Shown: piece after piece, positions 952 through 20,656 of the stretch
Layout of the letters: every line of letters begins with the position of its first letter
How positions within the stretch are numbered: the first letter of the stretch is position 1
Assembly: GCA_963830115.1 (NCBI GenBank)
Contig: CAWHLB010000015.1
Location: 129,178-193,177, forward strand
Direction of reading: 5' to 3'
Source: an uncultured delta proteobacterium
GTDB lineage: Bacteria > Myxococcota_A > Polyangia > Polyangiales > CAWHLB01
Length of the DNA stretch: 64,000 nucleotides
Program-made: the position numbers and the translations under genes
Notes under the pieces: model-generated
Told to the model about the DNA's origin: nothing
Seen by the model: the letters and a program-made list of their open reading frames with translations, nothing else
The model's database searches: none

Positions 952-3026
952 TCAGGAGGGCCCCGCGTTGTCGCAGATGTTCGCGCTCGTGCACGTGAGG
1001 CCGTCACAGCAATCGCCTGCGCCGCCGCAGGATTCGCCGCGCTCACGACATGTCGGGGCCGGCGAGCAGGTCTCATCGGGTCCGCAGAAGCTGCTGCAGC
1101 ATTCCCCGTCCGCGCCGCACGTAGCGCCGTTCTCGTTGCAAGGGGGCGGCACCCACTGCGGCGAGAGGATCGTGGCGACCTCCTGACCCGCGAGATAGTA
1201 CGGAACCTCGGAGGGATCGGACGACCCGTCGGGAGTGCGCGTGATCGCGGTGACCCACACCTGCTTTTGCCCGTGAACGCCCGCCGGCACGTTGCCGTAG
1301 TCGTGCAGGGTGGTGAACAGGAGCCAGAAGTAGCCGCCCGAGTCGAAGGGCGAGAAGATGGGTCGGTAGGAGCCGTCGGTCGCTCCCGAGCCGTCCGCCG
1401 GTCCGAAGTTCGCGTTGTCGAGCCGCACCGGTGACCCACCGCTGGGCGCGATCATCCACAGCGCGCCCCGCGTGCCGGACAAGCCCCCCCGGTCTCCGCA
1501 TCGGTCCTGCGCGTGTCGCCGTGCTGATAGACGATCCAGTGCGAGTCGGGCGTCCACGAGGGGTGCCAATCGACCGCGCCTTCGGGCGAGGACGCAGCGC
1601 TGTGAACTACGCCCGACGAGCCGAAGCTACCGTCGGCCATCACGGGGGTGAGCGCGAGGTCGTTGCCGCGGTTGGTGTAGGCGATGGTCGATCCGTCGGG
1701 CGACCACTCGGGATCGAATCCGTCCCCCGCCTGTCCGGCGAGCGAGCTCACCTCGGCACCCGTGCTCATGTCGAGGATGTTGAACGGCAGGCTGGTGGGA
1801 TTCGCTCCGCAGTCACCCGCGACCACGCGTGTCGAGTCCGGATTGAACGATTCACAACGCCGCACGTCGTAGTGCACGGCGAAGAGGTTGGGGGCGGGGT
1901 CAGCCGTCAGATCGCGCGTGATGTCGAACGCCGTCACGGTCTCGGTCGGCTCACGGACAGCGATGAGGCGTCGCCCGTCGCGCGAAACCGCGTGGCAGCC
2001 AATGCACGTGTCGCCCGTGTGGGGCAAGAAGTCGACGAGCGATGCGGTCTGCACATCCAGGCGCATGAGGCGCGCCTGGGGAGGCGACCAGTAGTACACA
2101 GACCCGCCCAGCACCGCGTCGACGGTACGGAAGTCGGTCATGGCGCTCTGGTAGACGACGCCCCCCGAAGAGACCTCGACCGTTACCTGGATGGGCTGGC
2201 CGACATCGCTCCCCGCCATGGCGGGCCAGCTGTCGGTTGGGAGCTGCCAGCTGTCGTCGAACCCCGCCGCTCCGCGGAAGTAGCCGTCGAGCACCGCGTG
2301 GGGACGCGCGAGACGTACGTGCCACAGATCGTCCGCGGTGGGCGAGGGATGGTGCGGGGTCCACATGACCTTGGGCGGATACACGTTCCGAGGCATGACC
2401 GCGCTGGCCAGCGGGTAGTCGATCGCGGGCGCCGTCGAAGCATCCGTGCTCGGCGTCGCCCCGCCGAAGACGTCGGGATCGGTGGGCGACACGCCAGACC
2501 CGAGCACCGTCCCGTGCCAGTTCACGGTGAGCGTGGTCGACGCCGATGGCCCCGCGCCGCCCAACTGCACGCGGACCGTCGCGCTGCCGCCACTGCCCGA
2601 GGCCGTGAACAGGCCGGTCAGCAAGTTGATGCTGCCGATGGAGGCGTTGTCGATGGTGAACAGGAGTCCGCTCGTCAGGGTGCGTGTCGAGCCGTCGCGC
2701 TGTCGACCGAGGACCGTGAAGCTCAACGTGGAAGGATCGTCTGGAAGCTGGATGACAGGGTTGTCGGGCATGAGCGAGAGCGCGATCAGGTCGGTTGGGC
2801 TTCCGGCGTCCATGCCCTCCCCGGCGTCGGACGACGCCGGCATGGCCCTGCATCGTCCGTCGATGCAGACCTGGCTCGCCGCGCAGTCGTCACTGAGGTG
2901 GCAGGCTCTGCTCGAGCCCACGGTCCCGCCGCTGCAGGCCACGCCGAGCGCCGCGAGAGCCAGCGAGAGGAGCACCATGACCGCATGGCCAATTCTGGAC
3001 GTGTGGGTCGCGGTCTTCGTTCCCAT
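952..3026 (-). CDS. TolB-like/PD40 beta-propeller lipoprotein with Cys-rich C-terminal tail (one frameshift near 1485)
   Basis: Lipobox LGVAC; PD40 repeats PEWSPDG, PSWTPDS, PIFSP; ORFs 1452..3251 and 952..1569 join at the C homopolymer 1484-1490; Cys-rich tail (CGADGECCSSFC). Confidence 0.8.
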
Positions 3027-3067
3027 CGCTCGTTCCTCCCAGTTTCCTCGAGCGAGGGTAGACGGCG

Positions 3068-3082
3068 GCACGCGACGTGCCA
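3068..3082 (-). promoter_or_regulatory. Putative sigma54 -24/-12 promoter
   Basis: Minus strand reads TGGCACG-TCGC-GTGC (consensus TGGCACG-N4-TTGC), about 40 bp upstream of the ATG at 3026. Confidence 0.5.
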
Positions 3083-3247
3083 TGGGTTCCTCACGGGCAG
3101 GGACGGCGGAAGGCCCCCTCGTTGCACCGCGCGGTGGCGTCTCCGGGGCTTCTCGTCCCCAGAGCCCCGGGGTCCAGCGCGCCCCAGACCCCACCTCACG
3201 GGCGATCCCGGTGCGTCCCGAAGCTCCCCGGTGGCCGCGCCTGGGTT

Positions 3248-3577
3248 TCAAGTCCGAACGTCAGAGCTCGCACCATTCATGCGCCCCAGGCTTCGGGCGC
3301 ACTGGAACGCCATGGCAGCAAAGCCGAGAAAGGTCACTCCAGCAGCGTCCCAGGTCCGAATGTCGAGGTCACCGACGTGCGCGAGAAGAACGTAGGCGAT
3401 GGCCACGTTGAGGAGGCCCCATGCCACGTTCACGATGGGGGAAGAGAGCCCCTTGAACGGCGGCGACGCAAACGGGGTCTGCATCTGCCTACCCGCGACC
3501 CCCGCCATCAAGTGTGGCAAGCAGTTGGCGCAAAGGGCGCCACCGAAGAAGTAGGCAATGTAGTGGGGCCACGGCAT
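3248..3577 (-). CDS. Small integral membrane protein (about 3 TM)
   Basis: MPWPHYIAYFFGGALCANCLPHL...QTPFASPP...NVAWG; hydrophobic segments; directly downstream of the TolC-like gene. Confidence 0.7.
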   Translation of the reverse strand: MPWPHYIAYFFGGALCANCLPHLMAGVAGRQMQTPFASPPFKGLSSPIVNVAWGLLNVAIAYVLLAHVGDLDIRTWDAAGVTFLGFAAMAFQCARSLGRMNGASSDVRT

Positions 3578-3661
3578 GAATCCGCAGACCCTATGCGCTC
3601 GCATCGCGGCCGGCAACTCATGCTCGCTCATGCGAAACGACCAGGCCTTCGCCCCCCCCGT

Positions 3662-5183
3662 CTATCCACCCACCGCCTTGCGGAGGCGAGCGCCTGCAAT
3701 GCGAACGTCAATGGCGGCATTGAGCAGGCTCAAGCGCGCCGCTGTCAGCTCCGCGTCCGCGTCGAGCAAGTTGCTCGTCACTGCGCCGCCGGCGCGCAAC
3801 TGGGCGAGGCGGCCCCGGTAACTCGCCTCGGCCGCCTCGACGGCGACCCGCGCGGCCGTGAGCGCGGCGCGTGCGGCGACCTCTTGCTCGAAATCCGCCG
3901 TGACCTCGATTCGAACCTGTTCCTCGAACTGCTCGAGCGCGTCCCGCGCGGAGGCGAGCTGGGCGCTCGCCCGATCGTAGTTCGAGTTATGGATGAGGGC
4001 GTCGGTCGGTGACCACTCGGCTACGACGCTCACGTCCCACGCCGACTTCCACGCGTCCACCGACGGAATGATGCGGGAGTTGGGGTCACCATACTCGTAG
4101 TTGCCCACGGCGAACACACGAGGCCAGCGCTCGCCCGCGCGCGCCGTGGCCGCGTCACCGCGCGCGTACGCCTCCTCCCGCAACGCCTCGAGCTCCGGCC
4201 GATGCTCGATGGCGCGGCGCACGAGCTGTTCTTCGTCACGGTGCTCCACCGGCGGGTCGTGCGTGAGAATCCTCGCCGATTCGGATCTCCTTCGACGGGT
4301 CGAGATGGAGAACGGTGCGAAGCGTGCGCTCGGCGACTGCGACCCCACCTTTCGCGCGCGCCAGCATCACCTGGGCCACGGCGGTCTTGGCCTCCATCCC
4401 GTCTAGGTCGACGCCCGACGCCGCGCCGACGCGCTCCATCGCTTCGACTTGTCGCTGGTTTTCCTGAGCGTCGTGCAAGGACGCCTGGGCGAGCGCCAGG
4501 GCGCCCCTGGCCCGCACGTAGCCGAAGAAGGCTTCGCGCGCTCGCAATTCGAGCGCCTCCTTGGCCGCTTCGAGGACGTAGTCTTCGGCGTGTGCTCCAT
4601 GCTGGGCTGCGAGCGCCGCAGGAAGCAGGGTCATCAGGAGATCGGTAACCGGAACCGTGACCTGCGCGGTCACATCAAATTGGTCCTGAACGATCGGAAA
4701 CGTATAGGTCGTGAGGGCCCCGAGGACGCTTCGGACGGCGGGATCCTGCACCGCCGCGAGGTTCATCTGGAGCTCCTGCTGACCACCCGAGGAAAGGCCG
4801 GCGGAGAGGCCCGCGTTCGTGGCGTGGACCCGCGTGTAGCGACCGCGCACCATGATCTGCGGCAGCATCTCGAGCCAGGCCGCCGCTGCCGCCGCCCGAG
4901 CCGCGTCCGCATCCGCACGCGCCTGGCGAACGGCCGGTGCGTGCCCGAGCGCGATCGCTGCGGCGTGATCAGCCGTCAACCCCCCCCGCGTATAGAGCGA
5001 CTCCAGACGAAAGCCGGCGTGCTCGGCGACAGCAGCGTCCGATGGGTGCTGCCGGTGGTGGTGTCGATGTCGCTCCGCCTGGCTCGCCGAGGGAAACGCT
5101 GCGAGAAGGCAACACGCGGCGATCGACGCGAGCGCCGAGGCGCACCGCGTCGCGGGGAACCGGCCGCTCGTGGTGTCAGTCAC
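3662..5183 (-). CDS. TolC-family outer membrane efflux protein (one frameshift near 4269)
   Basis: Signal peptide (ASQA), OEP helical repeats, C-terminal LLDADAELTAARLSLLNA; ORFs 4236..5183 and 3662..4348 join as IGEDLTHDPP when one base of GAATC 4267-4271 is removed; start overlaps RND stop. Confidence 0.85.
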
Positions 5184-8100
5184 TCAGAGCCCCCCGAGGT
5201 GGGCGCCGTCAAAGGCAACGCCCCGCCGGAGACCTGGATGGGGCTGCCCACGAGCGTAGGCCCGTCATCGAGCTCGTCGTCCACCTGCTCCGGAAGCGGG
5301 CTCGCGAGCTGCACGTCCTCGCGGATCATCACCTTGTAAAGCGCCGGGACGACGAAGAGCGTGAGGAAGGTGGAGGCTAGGAGCCCCGAAATCATCGCCC
5401 ACGCCAACGGCGGCCACAGCGTCGACGAACTGAACGCCAGCGGCAAGAGGCCCGCGACCGTCGTTCCCGTCGTCAGCACGATTGGACGCGTCCTCGTGCG
5501 CACTGCCGCGATGAGAGCCTGTTCCGTGCGCATCCCGCTCGCGCGATCGCGCTCGACGAAGTCGAGCAAGACGATGGCGTTGTTTACCACGATTCCCGCG
5601 AGCGACAGCGCTCCGAGCAGTGACATGAAACCAAAGGGTTGCCTCGAAATGATGAGGCCCGGAATGATACCGACCATGCAGAGAGGAACCGTCGCCATCA
5701 CGATCGCCGTGCGACGGAAGGAGCGGAACTCGAAGACGAGACAAAGGACGATCAGGGCCAGGCCGATCGGAAAAACCTTCAGAAGCGATGCGTTCGCCTC
5801 GCCGGCACCCTGCACGGCGCCCGCGTATTCGAGGCGGACGCCCTTCGGTAGGTGATCGTGGGCGAGGCGCGCCTCGAGCGCCTCGAGCACCGGGCCGTAG
5901 GAGTGTCCCGGAAGCAACCCGGACATGACGTTTGCGAGGCGGTGACCGTTGCGACGCTCGATGTGGGCCGGACGCCACTCGACGTGAGCGGTCGCGACCT
6001 GTCCCAGCGGTACGAGCCCGCCCTTGCGCGTGGACACACCCATTCCCGGCAAGTCCTCGACGCGTGTGCGCTCACCCTGGCTCGAACGAAGAACGATTGG
6101 AACGGCCTGGTTCCCGCCGCGGTACTCGCCCACAGTCAAGCCGCGGCTCTGGGTGAGCATCGCCAAGGCCACATCCGATCGTGTCACGCCTTGGCGCGCG
6201 GCTGCAGCGTCGACGACATGAACACGGAGCGTCGGCGCACCGAGGTCGAGATCGCTGCGAACGTCGGTCGTGCCCTTGATGCGCTCGAGCTCCCGTAGCA
6301 CCGTTTCGGACGCCGCCGCGAGCTTCTTCCTCTCGTTGTCGTAGACGCGAACCACGATGGGGGCACGCACGTAGGGGCCCTGCTCCATCGACTGCACCGT
6401 CGCCTCCGCCTCCGGGAGCTTGGTGGCGACAATATGACGGGCCGCCGCGGCCACCGCGGCCACATCGGAAGCGGATCGCGTGGTCAACAGGATCGCAGCC
6501 AGGTTGGGAACGTGCGTAGGTGAGGACACGTTGTAATAGAACCGTGGAGGCCCGCGGCCGACGAACGTCGTGACATTGACGACGTCATGACGGCGAGCCA
6601 ACGCGCGTTCGATGACGTGGGCCGCCGCGTCCGTGTTTTCGATGTGCGTCCCCTCCCGCAAGTGCAGCTCGACCACGACCTGGTTGCGATCGGCGGAGGG
6701 AAAGAACCGCTGCCCAATGAGCCCAATACCCAACAACGAGCAGATCATCAGCGAGCCCGCGACGAGAAGGACGAGGCGGTGGCGGCGAACCCCCACGCCG
6801 CCAATGCGACTGGCCACGCGTTCGATCCAGCCTTCGCGGATGGCACGCCGCTCGAGCAGCCAGGCGGACATCAAGGGCGTGACGAACAGGGCTCCGAGCA
6901 AACTCAGCGTCAACGCGATGATGATGACGACCGGCAAGGCGCGAATGAAGTCCGCCGTCGTCCCCTTCGCGAGCAGCATCGGAAGATAGGCGGCCACCGT
7001 CGTCGCGGTGGCACCGGCCAGCGGAATCCCGAGCTCACGGACCGACGCCCGCGCCGCGTCGAGAGCCAACATTCCCTCGTCCAGCTTCGCCTGGATGTCC
7101 TCCACCACGACGATCGCGTTGTCGACGAGCATGCCGAGCGCGATGACGAACGCTGCGATCGACAACTGGTGGAGAACGCCACCCCCCATCCAATAGATCG
7201 CGAGCGTGCCGAGCGCGACGATGGGGACCATGGCCGACACGATGAGGGAAGATCGAAGTCCCATCGTCAGGAGGAGCATCACGGCGACGATCGCGATACT
7301 GGCCAGGAGGGAACGACCGAGCCCGCTGAGGCGCTGCGCCACGTAGTGCGGCTGGAAGGAAACCTCCTGAATCTGCAACGGTTGGAGTTCGTTCTGCATC
7401 CGCTCGACGGTCTTCCGAACACGCTCCCCGAGACGGATGAGGTTGATACCGTTCTGCGCCACGACACCGATGGCGACGGCCGGCTCGCCGTTCTGGCGCA
7501 TGCGAGCCTCGATCGGATCGGCCGGCCCGTGGCGAACGTGGGCGACCTCGCGAAGCTCGACGGACCCGCCCGACGGCAACATGATGGGCGTGTGCTCTAT
7601 GTCGGCAATCGATCCGAAGTCGGTTTCGGGGCTGAGGTCGGCACGCATCTGCCCGACCAAGACAGAACCGCCTGGGATGGCACTGTTGCGTCCCTGAAGC
7701 TCCGCGGCGAGGACGCGCTGATTGATGCCGAGGCGCTGGGCGGCGACCTGGTCGTACTCGATCGTGACCTGTTCGCCGGGATCGGCGATCATCGTTACGC
7801 GCGAGACGCCATCGATGTGCAGCAGGGCACGGCGCAGCTTGCGAGCCGCGGAGCGGAGAACAAGGGGATCGGTCGAACCGGTCACCGCGTACACCATCGA
7901 CTCTTGGTCGACGAACGAGTCGTTCAGCAGCGGCGCGCCCGCGTCCTTGGGCAGCTTGCGGCGTGCCCTAGCGATCGCATTCCGCACGTCGTCCCACGCG
8001 GAGTGCGTGTCGTAGATGTCCGGTCGTAGCTCCAAGGTGAAGAGCGCCACCCCCTGGCGCGAGGTCGCGTCCACGTATCGCAGAGCGTCCACCTGCTCGA

Positions 8101-8311
8101 GCTGCTCTTCCATGGGCTTGACGACGAGACGCTCGATCGTCTCTGCCTCTGCGCCCGGAAAGAGCACCGTCACGTCGCCGTAACGCGATGGGAAGGTCGG
8201 GTCCTCCTGGCGCGGCATGAACAGCCACGCTGCCACCCCCATCAAGGCAAAGATGGGAACGATGACGAGCACGATCCGCGAGTGCGGGTGCTTGCCGACG
8301 CCGCTGCTCAT
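5180..8311 (-). CDS. RND efflux permease (AcrB/AcrD/AcrF family)
   Basis: MPRQEDP, GMLVDNAIVVVE, FFPSADR, GIVVNNAIVL, RTRPIVLTTGTTVAGLLPL; own RBS (GGAG) and ATG at 8311; read in frame with the upstream MFP in the sequence as given. Confidence 0.9.
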   Translation of the reverse strand: MSSGVGKHPHSRIVLVIVPIFALMGVAAWLFMPRQEDPTFPSRYGDVTVLFPGAEAETIERLVVKPMEEQLEQVDALRYVDATSRQGVALFTLELRPDIYDTHSAWDDVRNAIARARRKLPKDAGAPLLNDSFVDQESMVYAVTGSTDPLVLRSAARKLRRALLHIDGVSRVTMIADPGEQVTIEYDQVAAQRLGINQRVLAAELQGRNSAIPGGSVLVGQMRADLSPETDFGSIADIEHTPIMLPSGGSVELREVAHVRHGPADPIEARMRQNGEPAVAIGVVAQNGINLIRLGERVRKTVERMQNELQPLQIQEVSFQPHYVAQRLSGLGRSLLASIAIVAVMLLLTMGLRSSLIVSAMVPIVALGTLAIYWMGGGVLHQLSIAAFVIALGMLVDNAIVVVEDIQAKLDEGMLALDAARASVRELGIPLAGATATTVAAYLPMLLAKGTTADFIRALPVVIIIALTLSLLGALFVTPLMSAWLLERRAIREGWIERVASRIGGVGVRRHRLVLLVAGSLMICSLLGIGLIGQRFFPSADRNQVVVELHLREGTHIENTDAAAHVIERALARRHDVVNVTTFVGRGPPRFYYNVSSPTHVPNLAAILLTTRSASDVAAVAAAARHIVATKLPEAEATVQSMEQGPYVRAPIVVRVYDNERKKLAAASETVLRELERIKGTTDVRSDLDLGAPTLRVHVVDAAAARQGVTRSDVALAMLTQSRGLTVGEYRGGNQAVPIVLRSSQGERTRVEDLPGMGVSTRKGGLVPLGQVATAHVEWRPAHIERRNGHRLANVMSGLLPGHSYGPVLEALEARLAHDHLPKGVRLEYAGAVQGAGEANASLLKVFPIGLALIVLCLVFEFRSFRRTAIVMATVPLCMVGIIPGLIISRQPFGFMSLLGALSLAGIVVNNAIVLLDFVERDRASGMRTEQALIAAVRTRTRPIVLTTGTTVAGLLPLAFSSSTLWPPLAWAMISGLLASTFLTLFVVPALYKVMIREDVQLASPLPEQVDDELDDGPTLVGSPIQVSGGALPLTAPTSGGSE

Positions 8312-9505
8312 GGAGACTCCTGCGGAGCTTCCGTTCGTCGGGTCCGGAGGGCTCGAGGTATCGCTGGGGCTTTCGCCGTGGACGATGGACACGGCCTCTC
8401 CGTCGACCAACGCGGCCTGGCCACCGACCACCACGGGCTCACCTTCCTGGACGCCAGCCGTAACAATTGCGCGATTGTCGACCAGCTCGCGCACGTGAAC
8501 GGGCACGCGCTTGGCGCGCCCCGCCTTGACGACGAAGACCGAAGGACTGTCACCGTTCGGATTGAGAATCGCGATGGCAGGCAGAGACATGCCGGGCGCG
8601 ACGTGCGTATGAAAGACGACCTCTGCGGCCATTCCCGGCACGACGGGCGCGGTGGGATCGATACGTACGACCACCGGGAACTGCCGTCCGACTTGTCCCG
8701 CGCTGTGACCGACGAGCCGTACGGTCCCGTGGATGTTCTTCAAGCCGGCGAGCGGCATGTTCACCTCGACCGCGCTCCCAGCATTGATCCGTGCGATCTG
8801 CGATTCGGGGACCTCGACCTCGACTTCGTCGCCAGCGACGCCGCTCAGGACCACCACGGGGCGGCCCGGTACGGCGAACTCACCGGGCTCGAGCAGAACC
8901 TGGCTCACGATGCCGTCGAATGGTGCCCGTAGGGTCGCCTCGTCGAGCATTCGGACAGCCTCTTCCCGCTGAGACCGGGCCGCCGCCCCCCCGGCGCGCA
9001 GGGCGCGCAGCTGCGCCGTCACCTGATCCACCTGGGCCTGGGAGACAGCGTCATCTCGCGCAAGCACGCGAGACCGATGCCGAGCGCGATACGCTTCACT
9101 CAGGTGAGCCGTCGCCTCCCGGGCTTGCGCAGCCGCGGCCTGTACCGCGGTCTTCAGGGGCGCTTGGTCGATCTGGGCGAGAACGTCCCCCGCGTGAACC
9201 TCGTCACCGATGTCTACGGGACGAGCCATGAGCCGCCCCCCGAGGGTGAACGACAGCTCCGCTCGATTGATCGCACGCGTGATCCCCGACGCCCGGAATT
9301 CGCGAACCCCGTCGTCGTGCGTCACCTTCGCGATCTGCACCGGCCGAGGCGTCTGCGCGGCAGGTGTCTCGGCGCCAGATCGCCCCTGAAAGACGACGAG
9401 CGTGACACCACCGACGCCCGCGATCGCAAGCACGACGGAAAGAACCACGGGAGCCGTCTTCTTCCGACGGCTCCCCGGACGCGTTGCTGTGGAAGGTCGT
9501 GCCAC
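8308..9505 (-). CDS. Efflux RND periplasmic adaptor (MFP) subunit
   Basis: N-terminal TM, LSFTLGGRL, VDIGDEVHAGDVLAQID, LRAPFDGIV, PGMAA, GVQEGEPVVVGG; probable true stop TGA 8308-8310 overlapping the RND ATG if one extra base at 8359 is removed. Confidence 0.85.
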
Positions 9506-9714
9506 GCTCCCTCAGCCCAGAGCGGCCACGTCGGGTCGGAGAGGAGCCCGGAGGCGCACGAGAGGAACATGACAGAGCCGGCCGGAGCCAAGGCAACGGC
9601 TCGCCGTCTTCTCGGTCGCGTGAGCCCGAGAGATGGCCGAGCTCCGATCCCGAGAGCTCCCCATGCTCTGGTCCGCGGCAGAACGAGGCAGCCATGGTGT
9701 CCGCACGGCGGGCA

Positions 9715-10575
9715 TCACGCCGACCGGAGGAGGAGGGTTTCGTCGCTGCGCTGGGTGCGCAAGTAGCCGCGAGTCGTGGGACGCAGGGTCTCGACCCGGT
9801 TCGAGCGACGCAGGAAGAGGTCCTGAAACACCTGCCGCGGCAACTTCGAAGGCCGTGGATTGCGCTCGGACGGCACGGAGCCAATCTCGATGCAAGACGG
9901 AAGACTGTCGATGAAGTGCTCGTGCACCGGGCGACCCGTGGACATGGGGCGGCGGTAGTGCCGGCGGAAGAACGTCACCGCCGCGCGCGCGTCCTGCACG
10001 AGCCCCACCACGGGCGCCGAGAGCTCCGCGTGGGCCTGCTCGCGGCCGAACCGCTGGAATCCGAACACGGCCCGGTACAAGGGGGCCGCGTTCGGATTCA
10101 CACCGACGACGACGTGGCTCGCATCGAGCACGTTCCGGGCGATGAAGTGGGCCGTCAGGTAGAGCAGCGTGGTCACGCCCGTGCGGCGGCAACGGGGCTC
10201 GACGGCGAGCGAGTTGAACTCGACGAGACACGCACCATCACGGCGCAGCGCTGCGAGGGCGTCCGGGTAGTCCTTGTCGAGTGGCAACCCGGCGGGGGAG
10301 TCCAGCGTGACGGTGAGGGTCGCCACGACCTCGTCGCCCTCGTAGGCCACGAGGACCGTGGCTTCTTCGAGCACGTGCTGCTCGGTGATGCGCATGCGCG
10401 GGGCGCAAAGCGGCTCGAGCCCGCGCGACGCGTACGCCTCGTGGAGCAGGGTAAAGGCCTGGTCGAGCTCGTCACTCGTCCTGGCGACGCGGATTCGGTA
10501 GCGGTCGAGGGGCGTGTCTTCGAGCCGTGCCTTCGACCGGATGACCCAGGCGGGACAGACCTTCAACCACCACAT
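9715..10575 (-). CDS. FeeM-type N-acyl amino acid synthase (GNAT fold), copy 2
   Basis: RIRVARTSDELDQAFTLLHEAY, TLTVTLDSPAGLPLD, VEFNSLAV, VGVNPNAAPLYRAVFGF; RBS GGGAGG before ATG 10575. Confidence 0.8.
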   Translation of the reverse strand: MWWLKVCPAWVIRSKARLEDTPLDRYRIRVARTSDELDQAFTLLHEAYASRGLEPLCAPRMRITEQHVLEEATVLVAYEGDEVVATLTVTLDSPAGLPLDKDYPDALAALRRDGACLVEFNSLAVEPRCRRTGVTTLLYLTAHFIARNVLDASHVVVGVNPNAAPLYRAVFGFQRFGREQAHAELSAPVVGLVQDARAAVTFFRRHYRRPMSTGRPVHEHFIDSLPSCIEIGSVPSERNPRPSKLPRQVFQDLFLRRSNRVETLRPTTRGYLRTQRSDETLLLRSA

Positions 10576-10976
10576 GCGCGCCTCCCGCCGGAAGGTGATT
10601 CGCCGGCACGATCTGTCGGTCGCATGAGGTCCAAGGTCGGCTAAGGCGTCGTCGCAAATCGTCCACCACGACGTTCCAAGTCCGCGTCTCGAAATCGATT
10701 TCTTTTGATCCGCCGCTCGGTCCGTGGGCACGAGCCGACCTCGGAGGCCGGCTCGTGCGCGGGGGCGGTCCTCCTCGACACCTCCGCCGAGTCTCCGACC
10801 ATCACGGCAACGGGCCATGGGCCCGCGAATCAGGTGGAGACGGGTCGGACCGGCCGAGAAGCCGGTTCCCTTTGGTGCACGGGTGGCCATGGGCCCGGCG
10901 GGGCGGCGCCAAGCCCCTTCGACGTCGCCGTCTTCTGGATCCACGGGTTCGTACCCTCCTTGGCCGCGCGCCGAGA

Positions 10977-13007
10977 TCATGCGGCGCTGGCTGTGCGGGT
11001 TGCCGCGAGCTTCGTGTCGCGTTTCGGCGCACTCCTCGACACGATGAGCTCCCGGAGCGGCTTGCGAACCGAGCGCGCCATCGTGGTGTGCGATCGCGGG
11101 GTGCCGAGCCGTCCCGCGAAGACGAGCGCTTCGACTCCCCGCTCCGGCCACAGCGCCTCGAGGGACTCACCGAGCGCCCGAGCCTGTTCGCGGATGGCGC
11201 GCGAGTCGGTGAACAGAACCCCGTCGAGGCCGTACCGGCCGAACGCGAGGGGCGCCATGCCCGGCTGCATGGCGAGGCCGAGCCGCGTCGCCTCGAGCCA
11301 CATGCGCTGCAGCCCCATGCCGGCGCGGAGCAGGGCGGGGACGCGCTCAGCGCGCGAAGGCGGGCTCCGAAACGCCACGAGGAACTGGGCCCCACAGGCC
11401 ATGCCCGGGAAGAGATCCATCTGTAGGCGGGGCAAGCCCGTGCCGGCGACGCGATTCATCCATTGGACGCGCGTGAAGCTCGAAAGCGCCCACCGCATCG
11501 AGGCGAGCGTGACGATGTCGAGGCCGAGCGAGTGGGCGGGGATGCCGTCGTCGCTCTGGTCGCGTTTGAAGTCGACGATGCGCTGATGCGCCGCGTGCGC
11601 TTCGGGGATCCTGAGGCGGATGTCGGTCGCCTGCATGTTGAGCTGCGTGAGCCTCCAGCGCTCGCGACGCGACTCGAGCCAGCGGACGGTGAGCTCCGGC
11701 CCGAGCGCGTCCTCGAGCGCCCGGCGCTCTTCGGGCCGGAGCGGTGTCGTGTGGTAGGCGTTGCGGTTCACCGAGCGGGCACGGAGAAAGGCGCACCGCG
11801 GGTCCTCCTCGACTGCGGCGTCTCGCGGCATCGATACGTCGATGCGCAAGACGCTGGGGTCGTCGTCTGCGTCGCCGGAAAGCTCCCAGCGCAGCGTTCG
11901 GCCGAAGCGAGTCGCAGCCACGCGCATCGTCTCGAGCAGGAAGCCGCCCGCGAGCCGCGTGAAGTTGCCGTCCAGGTCGTAGACGTCGCCCTCGGGGATC
12001 TGCAGGTGGACGCGCACGGTCTCGGGGCCCGTGCGCTCGAACCTCCACGGTTGGTGGTTGTCGCCGCTCGGTGCCCAGCGCGCCAGATCGAGGATCCTCT
12101 CGATGTCGTCTTCGGCGATTGTGGCGGGTGGCGCCGTTCGTGCGGCGCCGAGATCGTGCAGCATCGAAAAGAGCTTGCGCTTGACGGTCTGCAGAGGGTT
12201 CCTGTGCCCTGCGTGCAGGCGGCCGCGTCGCCACCGGCCCGTGAATGCATCGAACTGTTGGTAGCAGGGCGCCGCCCGGACCTTGCCGCGCCCGAGCAGG
12301 ATCTTGACGGCCTCCGTACCGACGACACCCGCGCAGAGCTGGCAGGCCATGGGAGTCGACGGCGCGCGACCCGCCACGAGGTCGAGCCACTGCGGCTCGG
12401 CGAGCGCTGGCATGTGCAGGGCCCCTGGCGCGAGCCCCGTCAGGAGCCGCGCGAGCTTCTCCTCGCGGCTCCGGCCGCGCCAGCCGAAGTACTGCTCGAA
12501 GGTCATCTGTCCCGGCATGAACACGAGGTACGCCACGCTCATCCCGATGGGCGCCGCCGTGGCCGCCGGGATCCCGAGCGCGGCACAGCGCTCGAAGACG
12601 AGCTCGCGCGCGTCGAGCGCGAAGGTATCGAGGCCGTCTACGTAGAGGTCCACGCCGCGGAGGAACGCGTCAACGTTCGTCGCGTCGATGCCTTCGGCAA
12701 AGGTGCGAATGCGAAGGTCAGGGTCGATGTCGCGGGCCATGGACTCCATCACCTCGACCTTCGGGCGCCCGACGGTGCTCATGGCCGAGCCGACCTGACG
12801 GTTGAAGTTCGCGAGCTCGAAGCGATCGAAGTCCGCGATGTGAAAGCCGCCGATGCCCAGTCGCGCGAGTGTCAGCAAGTGCGCGCCGCCGACGCCGCCC
12901 ATGCCTGCGATGGCGACGGTCTTGTCGCGAAGGAGTTGCTGCTCCCACGCGCCGAGCCAGCCCAGGTTGCGGGAGAAGGCTTCGTCATGGTCGAACGGCG
13001 TGTGCAT
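10977..13007 (-). CDS. oxzB: ThiF-family adenylyltransferase / nitroreductase di-domain protein (OxzB-like oxazolone synthetase)
   Basis: ThiF part: FSRNLGW, VAIAGMGGVGG, DFDRFELANFNRQ, GRPKVEV; nitroreductase part: ARWAPSGDNHQPWRF, RSVNRNAY, AGMGLQRMWLEATRLGLAMQP; ATG at 13007. Confidence 0.85.
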   Translation of the reverse strand: MHTPFDHDEAFSRNLGWLGAWEQQLLRDKTVAIAGMGGVGGAHLLTLARLGIGGFHIADFDRFELANFNRQVGSAMSTVGRPKVEVMESMARDIDPDLRIRTFAEGIDATNVDAFLRGVDLYVDGLDTFALDARELVFERCAALGIPAATAAPIGMSVAYLVFMPGQMTFEQYFGWRGRSREEKLARLLTGLAPGALHMPALAEPQWLDLVAGRAPSTPMACQLCAGVVGTEAVKILLGRGKVRAAPCYQQFDAFTGRWRRGRLHAGHRNPLQTVKRKLFSMLHDLGAARTAPPATIAEDDIERILDLARWAPSGDNHQPWRFERTGPETVRVHLQIPEGDVYDLDGNFTRLAGGFLLETMRVAATRFGRTLRWELSGDADDDPSVLRIDVSMPRDAAVEEDPRCAFLRARSVNRNAYHTTPLRPEERRALEDALGPELTVRWLESRRERWRLTQLNMQATDIRLRIPEAHAAHQRIVDFKRDQSDDGIPAHSLGLDIVTLASMRWALSSFTRVQWMNRVAGTGLPRLQMDLFPGMACGAQFLVAFRSPPSRAERVPALLRAGMGLQRMWLEATRLGLAMQPGMAPLAFGRYGLDGVLFTDSRAIREQARALGESLEALWPERGVEALVFAGRLGTPRSHTTMARSVRKPLRELIVSRSAPKRDTKLAATRTASAA

Positions 13008-13060
13008 GATCTCATCACTCCCTTCCCTGTTCCCCCGGGGTCCCGGACTCGCCCGCCCGG

Positions 13061-13938
13061 TCACGCGACACACGTGAGCGGCACGCGCGCCAGGGTCTCG
13101 TCCGAGCGGACTCGTTCGAGGTGCTCGCGCGCCGGTGGGCGCAGCGTTTGAACGCGATCCGTTCCTTGGAGGAAGAGCCGCTGGAAGACGGCGCGAGGCA
13201 TCTTCCAGCGGGTGACGGCCTCCGGGGAACGTTCGCCCGGTAGCTCGAGCCCGGGGATTCGGACGCTGACCGAAGATGTGCTCGGCGACGCTGTAGCCCG
13301 TCGGTAGCGGAGCTCGGTAGTGCTTGCGGCAGTGGCGCTCGTTCCGTTCTCGTTCGAGCTCCATTCCGATCACGGGTGCCGTGAGACTCGGCGTGATCCC
13401 GTGGCTCGCCGAAGACACCGAAGCCCCAGAGGGCGCGGTAGAAGGGCGCGGCCTTCGGGTGAATCCCGATCACGAGGCGATCGACCCCGAGCCAACCGAA
13501 GGAGAAACGTGCAGCGGCGAGGCTCAGGAGCTGACACACGCCGCTGTGATGACACCGGCCGACGATCCCGAACGAGCCGAGCTCCGCGATCCTCTCCCCA
13601 CGCTTCCGGAAGCCGCAAAGCCGAGCGCCGTAGTCGTTGTCGAGTGGCAGCCCGGCCGGCGAGTCCGTGGTCACCGTCATCGTCCCGACGAGCTGGTCTC
13701 CCTCGTAGCAGACCAATACGGTCGACTCCGGCAGGAGGTGTTGGTCCGTGATGCGCATGACCGGCGCGTCGAGGGACTCGATGCCTTGCCAGGCGTAGGC
13801 GATGTGGAGGAGGCGGAACGCTTGCTCGTAGTCCTCGGTCGTTCGTGCGATCCGCACGGTGAATCGAGCGGGGTCGATCTTGTGGAAGCCTGCCTTGCGT
13901 CGAATCAGGTGATCCTCGACAGCCCGGGGTGCCCGCAT
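13061..13938 (-). CDS. FeeM-type N-acyl amino acid synthase, copy 1 (frameshifts near 13387 and 13258)
   Basis: RIARTTEDYEQAFRLLHIAY, TMTVTTDSPAGLPLD, IGIHPKAAPFYRALWGF; after two +1 corrections the end reads KMPRAVFQRLFLQGTDRVQTLRPPAREHLERVRSDETL, aligning with copy 2 (KLPRQVFQDLFLRRSNRVETLRPTTRGYLRTQRSDETL); TGA 13061-13063; RBS AGGAAGGA before ATG 13938. Confidence 0.8.
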
Positions 13939-14077
13939 GACTCGTTCCTTCCTCGTGCCGGTCGCCTCCCCGGCACTCTTCGGTCCATGTCCGCTGGCCG
14001 GTGCGACCTTCACGGCCGAACCACTTTTCTTTCGCGGAGGTCGCATGGGCCGAGTGAAACGGCTCACTCATGTGTGA

Positions 14078-14145
14078 CGGGTCGCGCGGACGAGCGTGCG
14101 GCGCACCACCCATCGGGCGGCGGGTCGCGCGGACGAGCGTGCGGC
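14078..14145. repeat. Perfect 25-bp direct repeat, two copies
   Basis: CGGGTCGCGCGGACGAGCGTGCGGC at 14078-14102 and 14121-14145 (43-bp period), intergenic, upstream of the feeM-oxzB-feeM operon. Confidence 0.9.
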
Positions 14146-14186
14146 TCGCGCATCTCGCCAGGGGCCGAGAATCGGTCGGTCGCGCC

Positions 14187-15065
14187 TCAGCGGGCGAGGC
14201 CGGTCTGCATGCGAACCCGTTCGCTGAAGGGCCCCGTCGGGTGGCGCGCGAGGAAGCGGCTGGCGCGCGTGCGCGCCTGGTCCTGTCGGTTCAAACGGAC
14301 GAGCGCGAAGATCGCGATCGCCTGCCGCTCTTCCTGAAAGAGGCCGTTCGGAAACTGCCGCTGCCCTTGCTCGGCGAGGGCAAGGGCACGGGCGGGGTCT
14401 GCGGCGAGCGCGCGACGGGTTTCGGCGAGCAGGGCGATCTCCGCTCGGACGATGTCCTGCTTCGTGGTGGGCGCTGCCTGCGTCGGCTCCGGCGCGGCTT
14501 GCTCGTGCGGGGGTGCCGCCTGTTCGTGCGCCGGTGAGGTCTCCGTCCTGCGATTCGCGGTCGGCGGGGATGGGTGCCCCGAATGGCGAGCGTGGTGTCG
14601 GTGCTCGCGGGTCGGCGGGGCGAAGGTTGGCGGAGCGACTTCAGCGGGTCGGGCCGTGATCGGCGGAGCGCTGGCGGGCTTCGTCGCCGGAGCGCGTTCT
14701 GCGGGTGCAGCCGGCGCCGTCACGGCGGGTCGCGCGGGGGCGCTCTCCTTGGGCGCGCGCGACGCCCACATCCATACACCCACCCCGACGGAGGCCGTGA
14801 TCAACCCGGCCACGACGAGGCCCTTGATCCCCGCGGCCGCCGACGTCGTCGCCGCCCCAACGTGGGCCGTCGCCGGGCCCGTGCTCGGGGCATGGCTCGT
14901 GCTGCCGGCTCCCGTGCCACCGCTCGCCCCGATCGCGGCTTCGAATCGCGCGAGCCCGGCCGCGACGTCGTAGCGGGGAGTCCACTCGGCCGCATCCGCG
15001 AGGTCTTGATGCAGCTCTTCCGGCAGCGACGGATCATCGAGCAAGCGCGGCGGGTCGGCGCTCAT
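14187..15065 (-). CDS. Putative anti-sigma factor (single TM, Pro/Ala linker, C-terminal TPR-like domain)
   Basis: Start overlaps the ECF sigma stop; TM GLVVAGLITASVGVGVWMW; C-terminus EIALLAETRRAL..FPNGLFQEERQAIAI..FLARHPTGP. Confidence 0.7.
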   Translation of the reverse strand: MSADPPRLLDDPSLPEELHQDLADAAEWTPRYDVAAGLARFEAAIGASGGTGAGSTSHAPSTGPATAHVGAATTSAAAGIKGLVVAGLITASVGVGVWMWASRAPKESAPARPAVTAPAAPAERAPATKPASAPPITARPAEVAPPTFAPPTREHRHHARHSGHPSPPTANRRTETSPAHEQAAPPHEQAAPEPTQAAPTTKQDIVRAEIALLAETRRALAADPARALALAEQGQRQFPNGLFQEERQAIAIFALVRLNRQDQARTRASRFLARHPTGPFSERVRMQTGLAR

Positions 15066-15662
15066 CCGGCCCTCCTGCTGCTTCGGCTCGCTTCCTCTTG
15101 CACGAGCTTGCCGTGAGCCCGCTTGAAGTGCTCACGAGCGTGGTGCAAGCGCGAGTAAACGGTGCCCTTCGGTATGGAAAGCGCTTCGGAGATGCCCTCG
15201 CAGCTCACGCCCTCGAGCTCGTAGAGCACGAACACGGCGCGGTGGTCGAGGTCGAGGGCGTCCAGGGCTTCGGCGACGCGTCGGAGCGACTCTCGGGCCT
15301 CCGAGGTGGCCAGAGGGTTGCCGCCGGTGGCCACTGCCCCATCGACCCGTTCTGCATCCAGCACGGTTCGCTTGCGGCGAGCCGAGCGCCGATGATTCGA
15401 GGCGGTGCGCACGGCGATGGCAGCGAGCCACGTCGTGGCCTGTGCCGCCCGCCCCGTGGGGGCTTGCTCCCCCCGCTGCTCGAACCCACCCCGCCGATGT
15501 GCCGTCAAGAACACTTCCTGAACCACGTCGTCGATTTCCTCGGCCGGTAGACCGAGTCGACGGAACGAAGCGTGCCACAAAACCCGCATGCCGGCGGAAC
15601 AGCTCGCCGGCGTCCACCGTCGTCACACCCTGTTCATGTCCGGCACCGGGGCGGTCCATCAC
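15062..15662 (-). CDS. ECF RNA polymerase sigma factor (frameshift near 15563)
   Basis: ELFRRHAGFVARF joined to RRLG..IDDVVQEVFL, TTWLAAIA, RAVFVLYELEG, IPKGTVYSRLHHAR (regions 2 and 4). Confidence 0.9.
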
Positions 15663-16582
15663 TGAAAATCGAGCACGAGGTCGAGACCGAGGGCTGCGCC
15701 CGCGATCGGAAAGGTCTTTTCGGCGACGACGGGCCCGTCGACCCCCTGCGTCACCTGCGCGACCGGCCGCACGATGGGCACTAGCCCCTGGATGAAAGGC
15801 TCCACGCCGAAGGGACCCGCGAGCTGGATACGCGCCGCGAGGCGGAGCGAGGCAGCCACCCAGAGCAGGTCAGCGGTCTTGGATTGGTCGTACCCTGCCC
15901 CTTCGGCGTTCGCGAGCCCGGCTGCGATGCCCGGGCAGGCGGCCACGCGAACCCAATCGAAGTGATCGTAGATGCAGCCGTCGATGCGACCCCCGACGAG
16001 GGTGATCCGGGCGCTGCCGGGAGGGACCTGCACCCGTGTCGGCACGCTGGCCATCCCGCTCACCGCGAGCCCGAGCCGGCGCCAGGCCACCTCCACGCCG
16101 GCTTCGACTCCTGCGGTGATGTTCGGGACCACTTGCCACAGGCCGAGGCCGCCGACCTCGACCGCAAGGCTCGCCTCGTCGCTTCTCGGCTCGGAAGGAG
16201 GCGCGGGGACGCCGAGCGACCCCAGGATGGTCGAGTCGATGGCGAGCGCAACGGCGAGGCCGAGCGCGGCCTGTCGGTCGGGGCACGCAGCCGGTACGTG
16301 CGCAAACTGGCGCTCTGCGCTCTCGCGCCCGTTGCGGAGCATGTCGAAGCGGAGCGTTCCGGCGCTGGCGCGCACGCGCACACGCACGCGCGCGTCCACC
16401 GTGCCCCGGCCTAGCCAGGCGGCGACCCGCTGGGCCGCTGCCTCCCAATCGATGCAGCCGTCGTCACCCTGGACCGTGATGGCGCGTGCCAGGGGTTGCA
16501 TGGGAGCGGCCTGTGCATCCGCTCGTACGGCGGGCACGCCGGCCGAAAGAGCAAACGCGAGGACCGAGAGCGCGGTGCGCAC
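15659..16582 (-). CDS. Exported protein with probable C-terminal beta-barrel
   Basis: Signal peptide (RTALSVLAFALSAGVPAVRA), N-terminal domain with Cys pair, alternating beta strands ending LGLDLVLDFQ; stop overlaps sigma start. Confidence 0.65.
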   Translation of the reverse strand: MRTALSVLAFALSAGVPAVRADAQAAPMQPLARAITVQGDDGCIDWEAAAQRVAAWLGRGTVDARVRVRVRASAGTLRFDMLRNGRESAERQFAHVPAACPDRQAALGLAVALAIDSTILGSLGVPAPPSEPRSDEASLAVEVGGLGLWQVVPNITAGVEAGVEVAWRRLGLAVSGMASVPTRVQVPPGSARITLVGGRIDGCIYDHFDWVRVAACPGIAAGLANAEGAGYDQSKTADLLWVAASLRLAARIQLAGPFGVEPFIQGLVPIVRPVAQVTQGVDGPVVAEKTFPIAGAALGLDLVLDFQ

Positions 16583-18229: not shown

Positions 18230-18896
18230 TGCAGGCGGCGGCGCCCGTCCAGGGCATCAGGAGCCGCCGATAGAACAGCCCCACGCCACCCCACATCGTC
18301 GCGAACCACAGCGGTATGCCACCGCCCGGGTAGCTCCACTGCCCGGTGGCGACGCCGACGTGCTCTATCGCGGCGCCGACGAGGACGCCGTAGCCGACGT
18401 AGGCGAGGTCGAACGGGTCCGAGAGCACCAGGAGCGCGGCGAGGAGGACGGTCAGTGTGATGGGCAGCAAGAGGGCGCCGTTCGTCACGAGCGCGAAGGG
18501 AAGAGCGAACAGCACCGCGAAGACCGCCGCGATCTTGAAGCCCTCGTCGGGCACGGGTCCCCGCACCGCACGGCCGAAGTGGAGCAGGTAGAAGCCCCAC
18601 ATCACGAGCTCGTAGGCGGGCATGCCGAGAACGTCGGGGTGGCGAAAGGCGAAGACCCCGTGTCGCAGCGCGCCGACATTCATCGCGCAGAAGAAGAGGC
18701 ATCCCCCGACGAACACCGCTGCCTCGCGCCACGAGAGGCGCGGGAAGGACAGCGCCCACAGGACGAGGAGCGCGAGGAGCTTCCACAGGTTGCCCGGAAC
18801 GAGCGCGAGGATGGCCAGGGTGCCGACCAGCTGGAGGGCGCTCTGGGCGCGGCGACTGCGGCGAAACGCGGTCCACGGGTGCATGGCGCGCCTCAC
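18177..18896 (-). CDS. Integral membrane protein (DUF2878-like, two internal repeats)
   Basis: About 8 hydrophobic segments; paired motifs GVFAF.HP..LGMPAYELVMWG and GQWSYP..GIPLWFATMWG; start overlaps oxidase stop. Confidence 0.7.
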   Translation of the reverse strand: MRRAMHPWTAFRRSRRAQSALQLVGTLAILALVPGNLWKLLALLVLWALSFPRLSWREAAVFVGGCLFFCAMNVGALRHGVFAFRHPDVLGMPAYELVMWGFYLLHFGRAVRGPVPDEGFKIAAVFAVLFALPFALVTNGALLLPITLTVLLAALLVLSDPFDLAYVGYGVLVGAAIEHVGVATGQWSYPGGGIPLWFATMWGGVGLFYRRLLMPWTGAAACITVRRNARSMHRSGSSS

Positions 18897-20656
18897 GCTA
18901 CGGCCACCGGCTGCCCTTCGTCGTACGAGGGGTGATCTACTTCTTCGGTCTCGTCGCGCGTGAGCGCGTAGCGACCGGGGGCGATGAGGTGCTGCGGATC
19001 GACGGCCTCCTTGATCCGCGTCGCCAGCTGCCAGAAAGGCAGCTCCGGACGCACGAGGCGATCACGGAAGCGCGGGCCCACGCGGTAGGGGAGAAAGCCG
19101 CTCTTGCATCCCTCCGCGAGCAGCGCGTCGTAGCACGCGTGGGCCCGGGCGACCGCGGCGGGGTCGTCGCGATCGAACAGAAGCGGCACCGTGCTGTCGA
19201 AGCAGCGATCGGAGACGCTCGTCAGCGTGATCAACGGCTCGATGCCGTGAGCCACGCAGATCCGATCGACCATCGCCGTGTACCGGCGCACGGCCTCGGG
19301 GCGCATGGGCACGAGTGGCGCGTACCAGAGCAGGCCGCACCCGTCGCGCGCCGGATCGAGCGGCCTGCCCTCGGGGGCCCGCGTGCCCGCGCGCCAGTAG
19401 CAGAGCGGCAGCGCGACCTCGTTCGGCCGCCCGGTCAGCACCTCGAAGCTCGACTCGAGCGTCGCGACCAGCGCACCGAGGCGCTGGCGGGCGCGGCGCG
19501 GCAACACGCGGAGCAGCTTCTCGAGGAAGCGGACCGTGGACGGCCGCAGAAACAGGAGGCGTCGCGTCAGCGGACGGATCTCCTTGCGGATCATGCGCCG
19601 CACGGCGCGCACCACGTGGCGCGGTCCGTAGATCGTGCCCATGCCGGTCCAGGCCGCGACGCGATGCTGCTTGGCGAAGCGCGCCACCGTTTCGTCGTCG
19701 AGGACCTCGCCGCGCGCGTTCGGATCGCCGGGGTGCGGGATCGTCATCGAGAGGATGCGTCGGCGGTTCATCAGGTTGATCGATCCCGTGATGTTGCCGA
19801 CCGAGCGAAGCACGTTGCGCACGCGCTCGACCGCCGCCTCGAGCCGCGCGTCGTCCTCGACCCAGAAGTAGAAGGCCGCCACCTCTTCGGGCACGCGCGC
19901 GAGGACGATCGTGGCGCGCGTGACGATGCCGAGGCCGCCCTGAGCGAAGAGGCCGTCGACGTAGGGACCGAGGCCCCACTTGAAGAGCTGGTCGATCTCC
20001 TCGCCGCCGAGCTCCGCGAGGGCCGAGCGGTACACGCGGCCCTCGGGCAGCACCGCCTCGAGGGACATGACCGCGCCGAAGTGATCGGCGTGCGGCGTGA
20101 CGCCGTAGCCGCGCTCGAGCGCGTTGCCGAGCAGGCTACAGGAGGGACCGGCACCGGTCGTGGGCACCATGAAGGGCAGGCCCTGCTCGTCGAGGAAGCG
20201 CCGCAGGTCGCCCTGCGTGACGCCCGGCTCGACCGTGACCGTGCCGAGCTCGGCGTCGAAGGCGACGATGCGGTTCATGCCGGACAGGTCGACGAGCACG
20301 CCCTCGTCGGCCGAGGGGGTGGCCGTTCCGTAGCCCCAGTTCCTGCCCGTGCTCACCGGGTGCAGCGGGACGCGGTGCTGCCGCGCGATGTCGACGAGGC
20401 ACACCACCTGCTCGGTCGAGCGCGGACAGAGGGCGATGGGCGCCGAGCGCAGCGCGGCGTCCGTGTCGCGGCCGTAGCGATCCTTCGCCTCGGCCCCCAC
20501 TGCGACACCGCGCTCACCCAGCAGAACGCGCCACGCGGCGACGGCGCGCGGCAGGTCCGGGCCGTCGAGCGGCTCGCCGGTCGTCGCGGCCCGCAACCGT
20601 GCCTGCGACCCCTTGCGACTCTGAGCGTCCGTTCCGTGCCCCGTCGAAAGCGCCAT
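18893..20656 (-). CDS. FAD-binding oxidoreductase, vanillyl-alcohol oxidase / p-cresol methylhydroxylase family (FeeG/CndG-like)
   Basis: PVSTGRNWGYG, DLSGMNRI, VEPGVTQ, GNALERGYGVTP, FKWGLGPYVDGLF, GIVTRATI, IKEAVDPQHLIAPGRY. Confidence 0.88.
   Translation of the reverse strand: MALSTGHGTDAQSRKGSQARLRAATTGEPLDGPDLPRAVAAWRVLLGERGVAVGAEAKDRYGRDTDAALRSAPIALCPRSTEQVVCLVDIARQHRVPLHPVSTGRNWGYGTATPSADEGVLVDLSGMNRIVAFDAELGTVTVEPGVTQGDLRRFLDEQGLPFMVPTTGAGPSCSLLGNALERGYGVTPHADHFGAVMSLEAVLPEGRVYRSALAELGGEEIDQLFKWGLGPYVDGLFAQGGLGIVTRATIVLARVPEEVAAFYFWVEDDARLEAAVERVRNVLRSVGNITGSINLMNRRRILSMTIPHPGDPNARGEVLDDETVARFAKQHRVAAWTGMGTIYGPRHVVRAVRRMIRKEIRPLTRRLLFLRPSTVRFLEKLLRVLPRRARQRLGALVATLESSFEVLTGRPNEVALPLCYWRAGTRAPEGRPLDPARDGCGLLWYAPLVPMRPEAVRRYTAMVDRICVAHGIEPLITLTSVSDRCFDSTVPLLFDRDDPAAVARAHACYDALLAEGCKSGFLPYRVGPRFRDRLVRPELPFWQLATRIKEAVDPQHLIAPGRYALTRDETEEVDHPSYDEGQPVAVA

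Follow-up and report, generated by a model that had tools for sequence, protein, structure and literature searches.

A probable oxazolone-type biosynthetic cluster placed directly before a tripartite RND efflux pump in a myxobacterial genome assembly

The locus described here raises the question of whether acyl-oxazolones are made in myxobacteria and whether a pump of their own carries them out of the cell. It lies in a 64,000-nt stretch of DNA from an uncultured bacterium (GenBank assembly GCA_963830115.1), hereafter the window, in which coordinates are given unless another contig is named. As de Rond et al. describe the pathway, OxzA yields N-acyl-Tyr or N-acyl-Phe, which the ThiF-nitroreductase protein OxzB turns into oxazolones with ATP (bioRxiv 10.1101/2020.06.11.147165); the original prediction for this DNA had given the same chemistry as established, in agreement with that description. 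The locus spans 3248..13938, from the stop of a small membrane gene (3248) to the ATG of feeM1 (13938), with all its genes on the minus strand, and the seven co-oriented genes expected within these limits are all present. It is probably a myxobacterial version of the OxzAB or N-acyl amino acid synthase (NAS)-ThiF-nitroreductase pathway, with a tripartite resistance-nodulation-division (RND) exporter placed directly after it. The cluster is well suited to the question of secretion because the synthetase gene is flanked by two synthase genes and then followed by a complete outer-membrane-spanning pump.

The gene at the heart of the cluster, the oxzB homologue (13007-10977, minus strand), has an intact frame and encodes a 676-residue fusion of an E1-like adenylating ThiF domain (Pfam, 146.6 bits) with a nitroreductase domain (42.3 bits), the single ThiF-nitroreductase fusion in the assembly. 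In NCBIfam it was above the cut-off of PRK08223 (401 bits), and an Acg-type FMN (flavin mononucleotide) oxidoreductase model matched residues 305-587 with 93.6 bits. A protein search returned 1730 relatives, and among the best 120 of these the identity was 48-61%, both Pfam domains were present in 119, and the match covered 96-100% of the length in 119 and 83% in one; more than 100 proteins with both domains, that of S. aerolata among them, were 50-61% identical. In an alignment of 23 family members every invariant column was kept, including the glycine-rich loop, NRQ, K83, D124/D127 and RWAPSGDNxQPW. The GxGGxGG motif is present, and D59, R70, K83 and D127 align with D62, R73, K86 and D130 of MoeB, which we take to be the ATP-site residues of that enzyme. 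The search for a solved structure of the family itself gave none, the nearest being MoeB, ThiF and TcdA.

The closest link to experiment is a Skermanella aerolata protein (P0057), 51% identical over 97% of the fusion protein, which we presume from the species name to be the one expressed by de Rond et al.; identity to the Pseudoalteromonas ardens locus was 41%. The oxzAB genes of S. aerolata are one of five pairs reported to yield oxazolones in Escherichia coli, and the OxzB of P. rubra was ATP-dependent in vitro (bioRxiv 10.1101/2020.06.11.147165). The fusion protein combines the features by which an OxzB-type protein was defined, namely an N-terminal ThiF domain with its ATP-site residues, a nitroreductase domain on the same chain, full-length similarity and adjacent N-acyltransferase genes. 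The oxazolone-type reading first proposed for the locus was largely right.

Two trees place the protein within its family, the first with 26 of 80 loci from other genomes dropped and the second built from 27 chosen rows with L006 and L073 dropped for internal stops. In both, it grouped with the metagenome proteins P0002 (62% identity) and P0005 and with both copies from one Sandaracinus metagenome-assembled genome (MAG; L009 and L014), with a Shimodaira-Hasegawa-like (SH-like) support of 99. This group falls inside the alpha-proteobacteria-rich half of the tree, which also contains the S. aerolata protein. In parallel, the NCBIfam model NF011425 (989 positions, named 'hypothetical protein') was matched by both FeeM proteins of the cluster at positions 25-210 and by the OxzB homologue at 312-797. 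The model appears to describe a single-chain FeeM-ThiF-nitroreductase fusion that would tie both functions together.

On either side of oxzB stand the only two FeeM-family genes of the 6.87-Mb assembly. The first, feeM1 (13938-13061), ends 53 nt upstream of oxzB, and the second, feeM2 (10575-9715), an intact gene of 286 codons, begins about 400 nt downstream. Both encode FeeM-type N-acyl amino acid synthases, with 104.7 and 130.2 bits to the Pfam FeeM family PF21926 against a cut-off of 27; when the whole genome was searched, the scores were 106.4 and 133.5 bits. Over 174 residues the two share 49% identity. The nearest solved structure to feeM2 is FeeM from soil DNA (PDB 2G0B), which belongs to the same Pfam family, although the similarity is weak (E 0.0017) and the FeeM proteins of the cluster carry about 90 further C-terminal residues that are kept in the Sandaracinus copies. 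These residues beyond the Pfam domain (9715-~10000 and 13061-~13385) are conserved in feeM2, feeM1 and two Sandaracinus FeeMs, with motifs such as K-M/L-P-R-x-V-F and R-T-Q-R-S-E/D-E-T, and match no family.

Adjacent N-acyltransferase genes are also frequent among homologues, as the oxazolone-type reading would require: 37 of the 71 open reading frames (ORFs) found just upstream of oxzB elsewhere encode N-acyltransferases, 25 with Acetyltransf_5 as best match (that of Pseudoalteromonas ardens included) and 12 with FeeM, the other 34 being something else or nothing recognizable. A synthase downstream of oxzB was otherwise found only in a Sandaracinus MAG locus (L014), one of 60 downstream ORFs, and Stieleria offers a precedent for clusters that hold several synthase genes (PMC12479983). 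In the synthase tree feeM1, feeM2 and the two Sandaracinus FeeMs form a clade (SH-like support 99), sister to the FeeMs of a Planctomycetota MAG and of a proteobacterial locus, L064 (support 84). That the OxzB protein and both FeeMs each group with the Sandaracinus copies speaks for common descent. In myxobacteria, an OxzB of the 'alpha' branch is thus paired with synthases of the FeeM branch.

The pathway that these genes would encode can be laid out in four steps. Each FeeM-type synthase would N-acylate an aromatic amino acid, most likely Tyr or Phe by analogy with the known systems, with a fatty acyl group taken from acyl-ACP (ACP, acyl carrier protein) or acyl-CoA. The ThiF domain would then adenylate the carboxylate with ATP, upon which the amide oxygen would close a 5(4H)-oxazolone ring, and the FMN-binding nitroreductase-type domain would desaturate the C-alpha/C-beta bond with O2, giving a 4-arylidene acyl-oxazolone. 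Finally, the pump would expel either the oxazolone or its ring-opened form, an N-acyl 2,3-dehydro-amino acid.

The pump genes encode a periplasmic adaptor (membrane fusion protein, MFP), a full-length RND permease and a two-repeat outer-membrane factor (OMF), together a complete tripartite system. The adaptor (9505-~8308) scored 198.8 bits to TIGR01730, with a cut-off of 94.9, and matched HlyD_D23 and HlyD_3. The permease (8311-5180, 1043 residues) matched ACR_tran with 542.9 bits over positions 11-1019 of 1021, and RND_permease_2 of NCBIfam with 443.9 bits, below its cut-off of 1250. The TolC-like OMF (5183-3662) has two OEP repeats (46.9 and 64.9 bits) and is collinear with an intact homologue. 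As in AcrAB-TolC-type systems, the genes run from the MFP through a 12-helix permease to a two-repeat OMF and overlap at their start and stop codons, but this pump is divergent and remains below the NCBIfam cut-offs for multidrug permeases. A gene for a 127-residue hydrophobic protein (3631-3248) begins 30 nt past the OMF gene; it gave only a sub-threshold ABC2_membrane match in Pfam (19.7 bits) and no NCBIfam family, and the Atlas clusters nearest to it (score 0.94) hold integral membrane proteins without a name, each about 110 residues long.

Several findings weigh against reading the locus as an oxazolone pathway with an exporter of its own, and the first of them concern the synthases. Neither feeM1 nor feeM2 gave a match to PF13444 (Acetyltransf_5) at E<=0.01, and the FeeM-type and Acetyltransf_5-type rows split in the tree with a support of 100. 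If OxzA is taken narrowly, as a protein that has PF13444 as best match and groups with gamma- or alpha-proteobacterial OxzA, neither belongs to it; by family assignment they are FeeM/NasY-type and not the Acetyltransf_5-type OxzA of the Pseudoalteromonas locus. An alignment with OxzA and OxzB, which the original prediction had proposed as a check, was thus borne out for OxzB, a full-length homologue, but not for OxzA.

The spacing of the genes is a further point of this kind. Non-coding DNA separates oxzB from feeM2 (about 400 nt) and feeM2 from the MFP gene (209 nt, 9714-9506), so that the genes need not form a single operon. A scan for promoters and terminators over 3000-14400 gave nothing above chance: there was no promoter-like site, with 0.5 in shuffled sequence, and the 6 terminator-like sites compare with 5.2 after shuffling. 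The longer gap (10976-10576) has weak third-position GC (guanine plus cytosine) content in all frames and no promoter-like site, and no Rfam match at E<=0.1 was found over 2500-16500, this gap included. For oxzB and the feeM genes the same frame plot bore out the assigned frames; in the MFP gene, where first-position GC is equally high, it did not discriminate.

Pumps are also uncommon at oxzB loci in general. An RND or MFP gene was found by tblastn within 10 kb of oxzB at 4 of the 80 loci from other genomes, and at 1 of 29 metagenome loci, figures that are close to chance because there are roughly 8 RND loci per genome. The link between pump and pathway is circumstantial, adjacency being what joins them. 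It is quite possible that the pump, together with the small membrane gene, is a general efflux system that has nothing to do with the pathway and happens to lie downstream, and that the biosynthetic unit consists of feeM1-oxzB-feeM2 only. Such an arrangement would agree with the 209-nt gap before the MFP gene, with the about 8 RND loci of this genome, with the lack of a pump at 76 of the 80 loci and with the report that Mycobacterium oxazolones are found mainly in cell pellets (PMC10404671, PMC12856293).

Against this, the pump is the immediate co-oriented neighbour of the pathway genes, and in two independent loci among the 80 an exporter starts directly after oxzB. A Porticoccaceae locus (L018:9135-16297) has the order oxzA-oxzB-MFP-RND, and the proteobacterial L064 (L064:9054-17449) the order feeM-oxzB-MFP-ABC ATPase-two ABC-2 permeases. 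Immediate adjacency of this type is more telling than presence within 10 kb. ThiF-type genes with MFP and RND genes nearby also recur. In one genome of the same order, G022 (L085:12756-19998 and L086:1-1710), a stand-alone ThiF gene, a convergent nitroreductase-like gene and a gene of the metallo-beta-lactamase (MBL) fold are followed by MFP-RND-OMF, and in a metagenome contig (L121:10001-18661) a stand-alone ThiF gene and a convergent nitroreductase-like gene are followed by MFP-RND. The ThiF proteins of both are 54-62% identical to the ThiF part of the fusion protein, and no FeeM gene was detected at either locus. The G022 locus is a related but different arrangement, and it also counts against the exporter reading in that its RND protein is only 26-35% identical to that of the cluster and is not clearly the same pump.

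A further parallel is found in mycobacteria, where the tyz genes adjoin mmpL9, a gene of the RND superfamily, and where the authors raised export as a possibility (PMC10404671, PMC12856293). The TyzACB and TrzAS systems combine an acyltransferase, a ThiF cyclase and a flavin oxidase, as does the present cluster, and TrzS is a fusion. Nevertheless, they belong to another phylum, the similarity in sequence is distant (the Rv1355c-family model scored 158 bits here, with a cut-off of 476) and the transporter there is an MmpL protein, in contrast to the tripartite pump found here.

The end product is another matter to be weighed. In producers with NAS-ThiF-nitroreductase clusters, namely Massilia, Thalassotalea and Stieleria, N-acyl dehydrotyrosines are described and oxazolones were not observed (PMC12479983), and this too speaks against an oxazolone as the final compound. 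At pH 8 the oxazolones themselves are lost to hydrolysis, their half-life being a matter of hours (de Rond et al., bioRxiv 10.1101/2020.06.11.147165). Since the ring is this labile and since such producers yielded dehydrotyrosines, an open-chain N-acyl 2,3-dehydro-amino acid may be what accumulates outside the cell. It is accordingly possible, if somewhat doubtful, that the same enzymes serve another end product, with the oxazolone as a transient or hydrolysed intermediate; a FeeM-type NAS gene also adjoins oxzB in Massilia polaris (L073). However, the five fused pairs expressed in E. coli, that of S. aerolata included, gave oxazolones (bioRxiv 10.1101/2020.06.11.147165), the fused TrzS of mycobacteria yields tryptazolones (PMC10404671, PMC12856293), and the dehydrotyrosine producers have separate ThiF and nitroreductase genes (PMC12479983).

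The clusters for stieleriacines, kyonggic acids and thalassotalic acids share with the present one the hallmark of the FeeM/NAS synthase, the joint use of ThiF and nitroreductase functions and the presence of multiple NAS genes. They differ in that ThiF and nitroreductase are encoded separately and are accompanied by methyltransferases, and no exporter appears in their description (PMC12479983). This comparison was made by description, with M. polaris as the only sequence stand-in. For the OxzA/OxzB systems of P. rubra and S. aerolata (bioRxiv 10.1101/2020.06.11.147165), the likeness lies in the ThiF-nitroreductase fusion of about 670 residues, the adjacent N-acyltransferase and the conserved motifs. 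In contrast, the acyltransferases here match FeeM (PF21926) best while that of P. ardens (L074) matches Acetyltransf_5 best, oxzB is flanked by a pair of them and the tripartite pump follows, and the host phylum is Myxococcota. The survey in that paper found alpha-, beta- and gammaproteobacteria only.

The reading of an active cluster also has to account for frames that are broken in the assembly. Two breaks, each with one extra base, divide feeM1 into three frames (~13386 and ~13256), a further extra base at 4268 divides the OMF gene into two, and an apparent one-base insertion near 15575 leaves the region-2-like N-terminus of a neighbouring sigma factor gene in another frame. At both 13386 and 4268 the inserted base is a T that precedes CTCACG; near 13256 it is one C of a CCCC run. 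In tblastn the three pieces of feeM1 are collinear with feeM2 and two Sandaracinus FeeMs and the similarity is unbroken, and the halves of the OMF meet, with no similarity lost, at residues 370/371 of the G022 OMF, which is read in a single frame. The breaks in these three genes can almost certainly be put down to errors of the assembly, since rpoB, an essential gene of the same genome, is scattered in 8 pieces among several frames and rpoC is divided into 2. It is very unlikely that the cluster is decaying, with feeM1 and the OMF gene as true pseudogenes and at most feeM2-oxzB functional: three frame breaks do lie inside the locus in the assembly as given, but other RND genes of the genome are likewise fragmented, completeness is 70.8% despite only 38 contigs, and all four breaks are single-base insertions after which similarity continues. 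The pseudogene reading was rejected on the fragmentation of rpoB and rpoC and on the similarity kept across these insertions.

One more error probably joins the MFP and RND genes, which form a single ORF of 1441 codons in the assembly. Such a fusion would also be topologically wrong, since the N-terminus of an RND permease lies in the cytoplasm and the adaptor belongs in the periplasm. In the +1 frame past the last conserved MFP residues, a TGA overlaps the ATG of the RND gene (ATGA, 8311-8308), and this, together with the error rate of the assembly, makes the fusion a probable artefact. The RND/OMF junction is alike, with the GTG start of the OMF gene overlapping the RND stop (GTGA), and overlaps of this kind are signals of translational coupling.

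Some observations on the assembly itself may be added. The rpoB and rpoC pieces lie outside the window on contig C4, at 187143-191205 and 182989-187027. The assembly carries about one indel per 0.6-4 kb, so that apparent fusions, split genes and pseudogenes of this genome are to be taken with caution unless reads bear them out. Two of the four breaks have the extra T directly before CTCACG on the minus strand, and TCTCACG occurs three times in the window; base calling may err systematically at a motif, possibly one of methylation, or the agreement may be a coincidence.

The weakest alternative, in which the fusion protein serves other ThiF chemistry such as azoline or azole formation in ribosomally synthesized and post-translationally modified peptides (RiPPs) or sulfur transfer in place of N-acyl amino acid cyclization, is hardly credible: ThiF and McbC-like nitroreductase domains do occur in peptide-modifying systems (review PMC12596934), but the match to the OxzB family is full-length and not of separate domains alone, NAS genes stand on both sides of the fusion gene and no YcaO or precursor-like family was found with Pfam among the ORFs scanned, on which grounds the RiPP reading was rejected, and a model for a FeeM-ThiF-nitroreductase fusion exists (NF011425).

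The host was placed by its RNA polymerase. Identities of 82-91% link the intact part of RpoC to proteins that, where named, carry the names Myxococcota, Polyangiales, Sandaracinaceae or Sandaracinus, and on this similarity the host is a member of Myxococcota near Polyangiales/Sandaracinaceae, as the word 'myxobacterial' in the original prediction had implied. Uncharacterized homologues of the OxzB protein are already public in the two Sandaracinus sp. MAG loci (L009 and L014). A search of 60 other genomes of the same order for OxzB, among which no other member of the host's family or genus was present, gave a match in G022 only, and there to the ThiF part only. The order feeM-oxzB-feeM-pump was found at none of the 29 metagenome loci, many of whose contigs are short.

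In one of the Sandaracinus loci (L009:67-6700) feeM and oxzB are followed, in this order, by genes for a GT1 glycosyltransferase, an AMP-binding enzyme and a hexapeptide transferase, an arrangement that suggests glycosylation or additional acylation of the product. Of the 60 downstream ORFs scanned, 11 are GT1 genes placed directly after oxzB.

The original prediction named no characterized myxobacterial example, and none was found in the literature covered here. No publication combining oxazolone, myxobacteria and ThiF was retrieved, and in those naming tyrazolone, phenazolone, tryptazolone or oxzAB, myxobacteria go unmentioned in titles and abstract openings, with the fuller text covered in part; supplementary homologue lists (56 OxzB homologues in the bioRxiv paper, and the JBC supplements) lie outside this scope and could name myxobacterial members.

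Two genes directly upstream of feeM1 and co-oriented with it bear on how the cluster might be controlled. The first (15662-15062, minus strand) encodes a sigma factor of the extracytoplasmic function (ECF) type, with matches to Pfam Sigma70_r4_2 (43.1 bits), to Sigma70_ECF and in part to region 2. The second (15065-14187, minus strand) encodes a 292-residue protein with a single hydrophobic segment and no Pfam or NCBIfam family, a putative anti-sigma factor on account of its position and of the 4-nt overlap between its start and the stop of the sigma factor gene. By position, the ECF sigma factor is a possible regulator of the cluster. In Pseudoalteromonas rubra and Colwellia, oxazolones are reported to be induced by antibiotics, and a role as a stress signal was suggested (de Rond et al., bioRxiv 10.1101/2020.06.11.147165); such induction makes the neighbouring ECF sigma pair an attractive candidate regulator. 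Farther upstream of the sigma genes, an ORF of 650 codons (18893-20845, minus strand) matches FAD_binding_4 with 91.9 bits.

Altogether, the cluster belongs to a known kind of pathway and its enzymology is otherwise as already described; its accessory differences are a synthase gene on either side of oxzB and a complete tripartite pump. It would extend the pathway to Myxococcota, with an OxzB of the alpha-proteobacteria-rich branch served by FeeM-type synthases. The cluster hints at secretion of acyl-oxazolones and offers a simple test case for it, and L018 and L064 are two independent exporter-linked loci that bear on the same question. More speculatively, and rather improbably as a whole, the locus could encode a stress-controlled secreted lipid signal, in which the ECF sigma/anti-sigma pair would switch on two synthases feeding one oxazolone synthetase and the reactive acyl-oxazolones would leave the cell through a dedicated tripartite RND pump, which the small membrane protein might assist. 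If this were true, it would be the first case of an exporter dedicated to an oxazolone pathway and would give a handle on the purpose of acyl-oxazolones.

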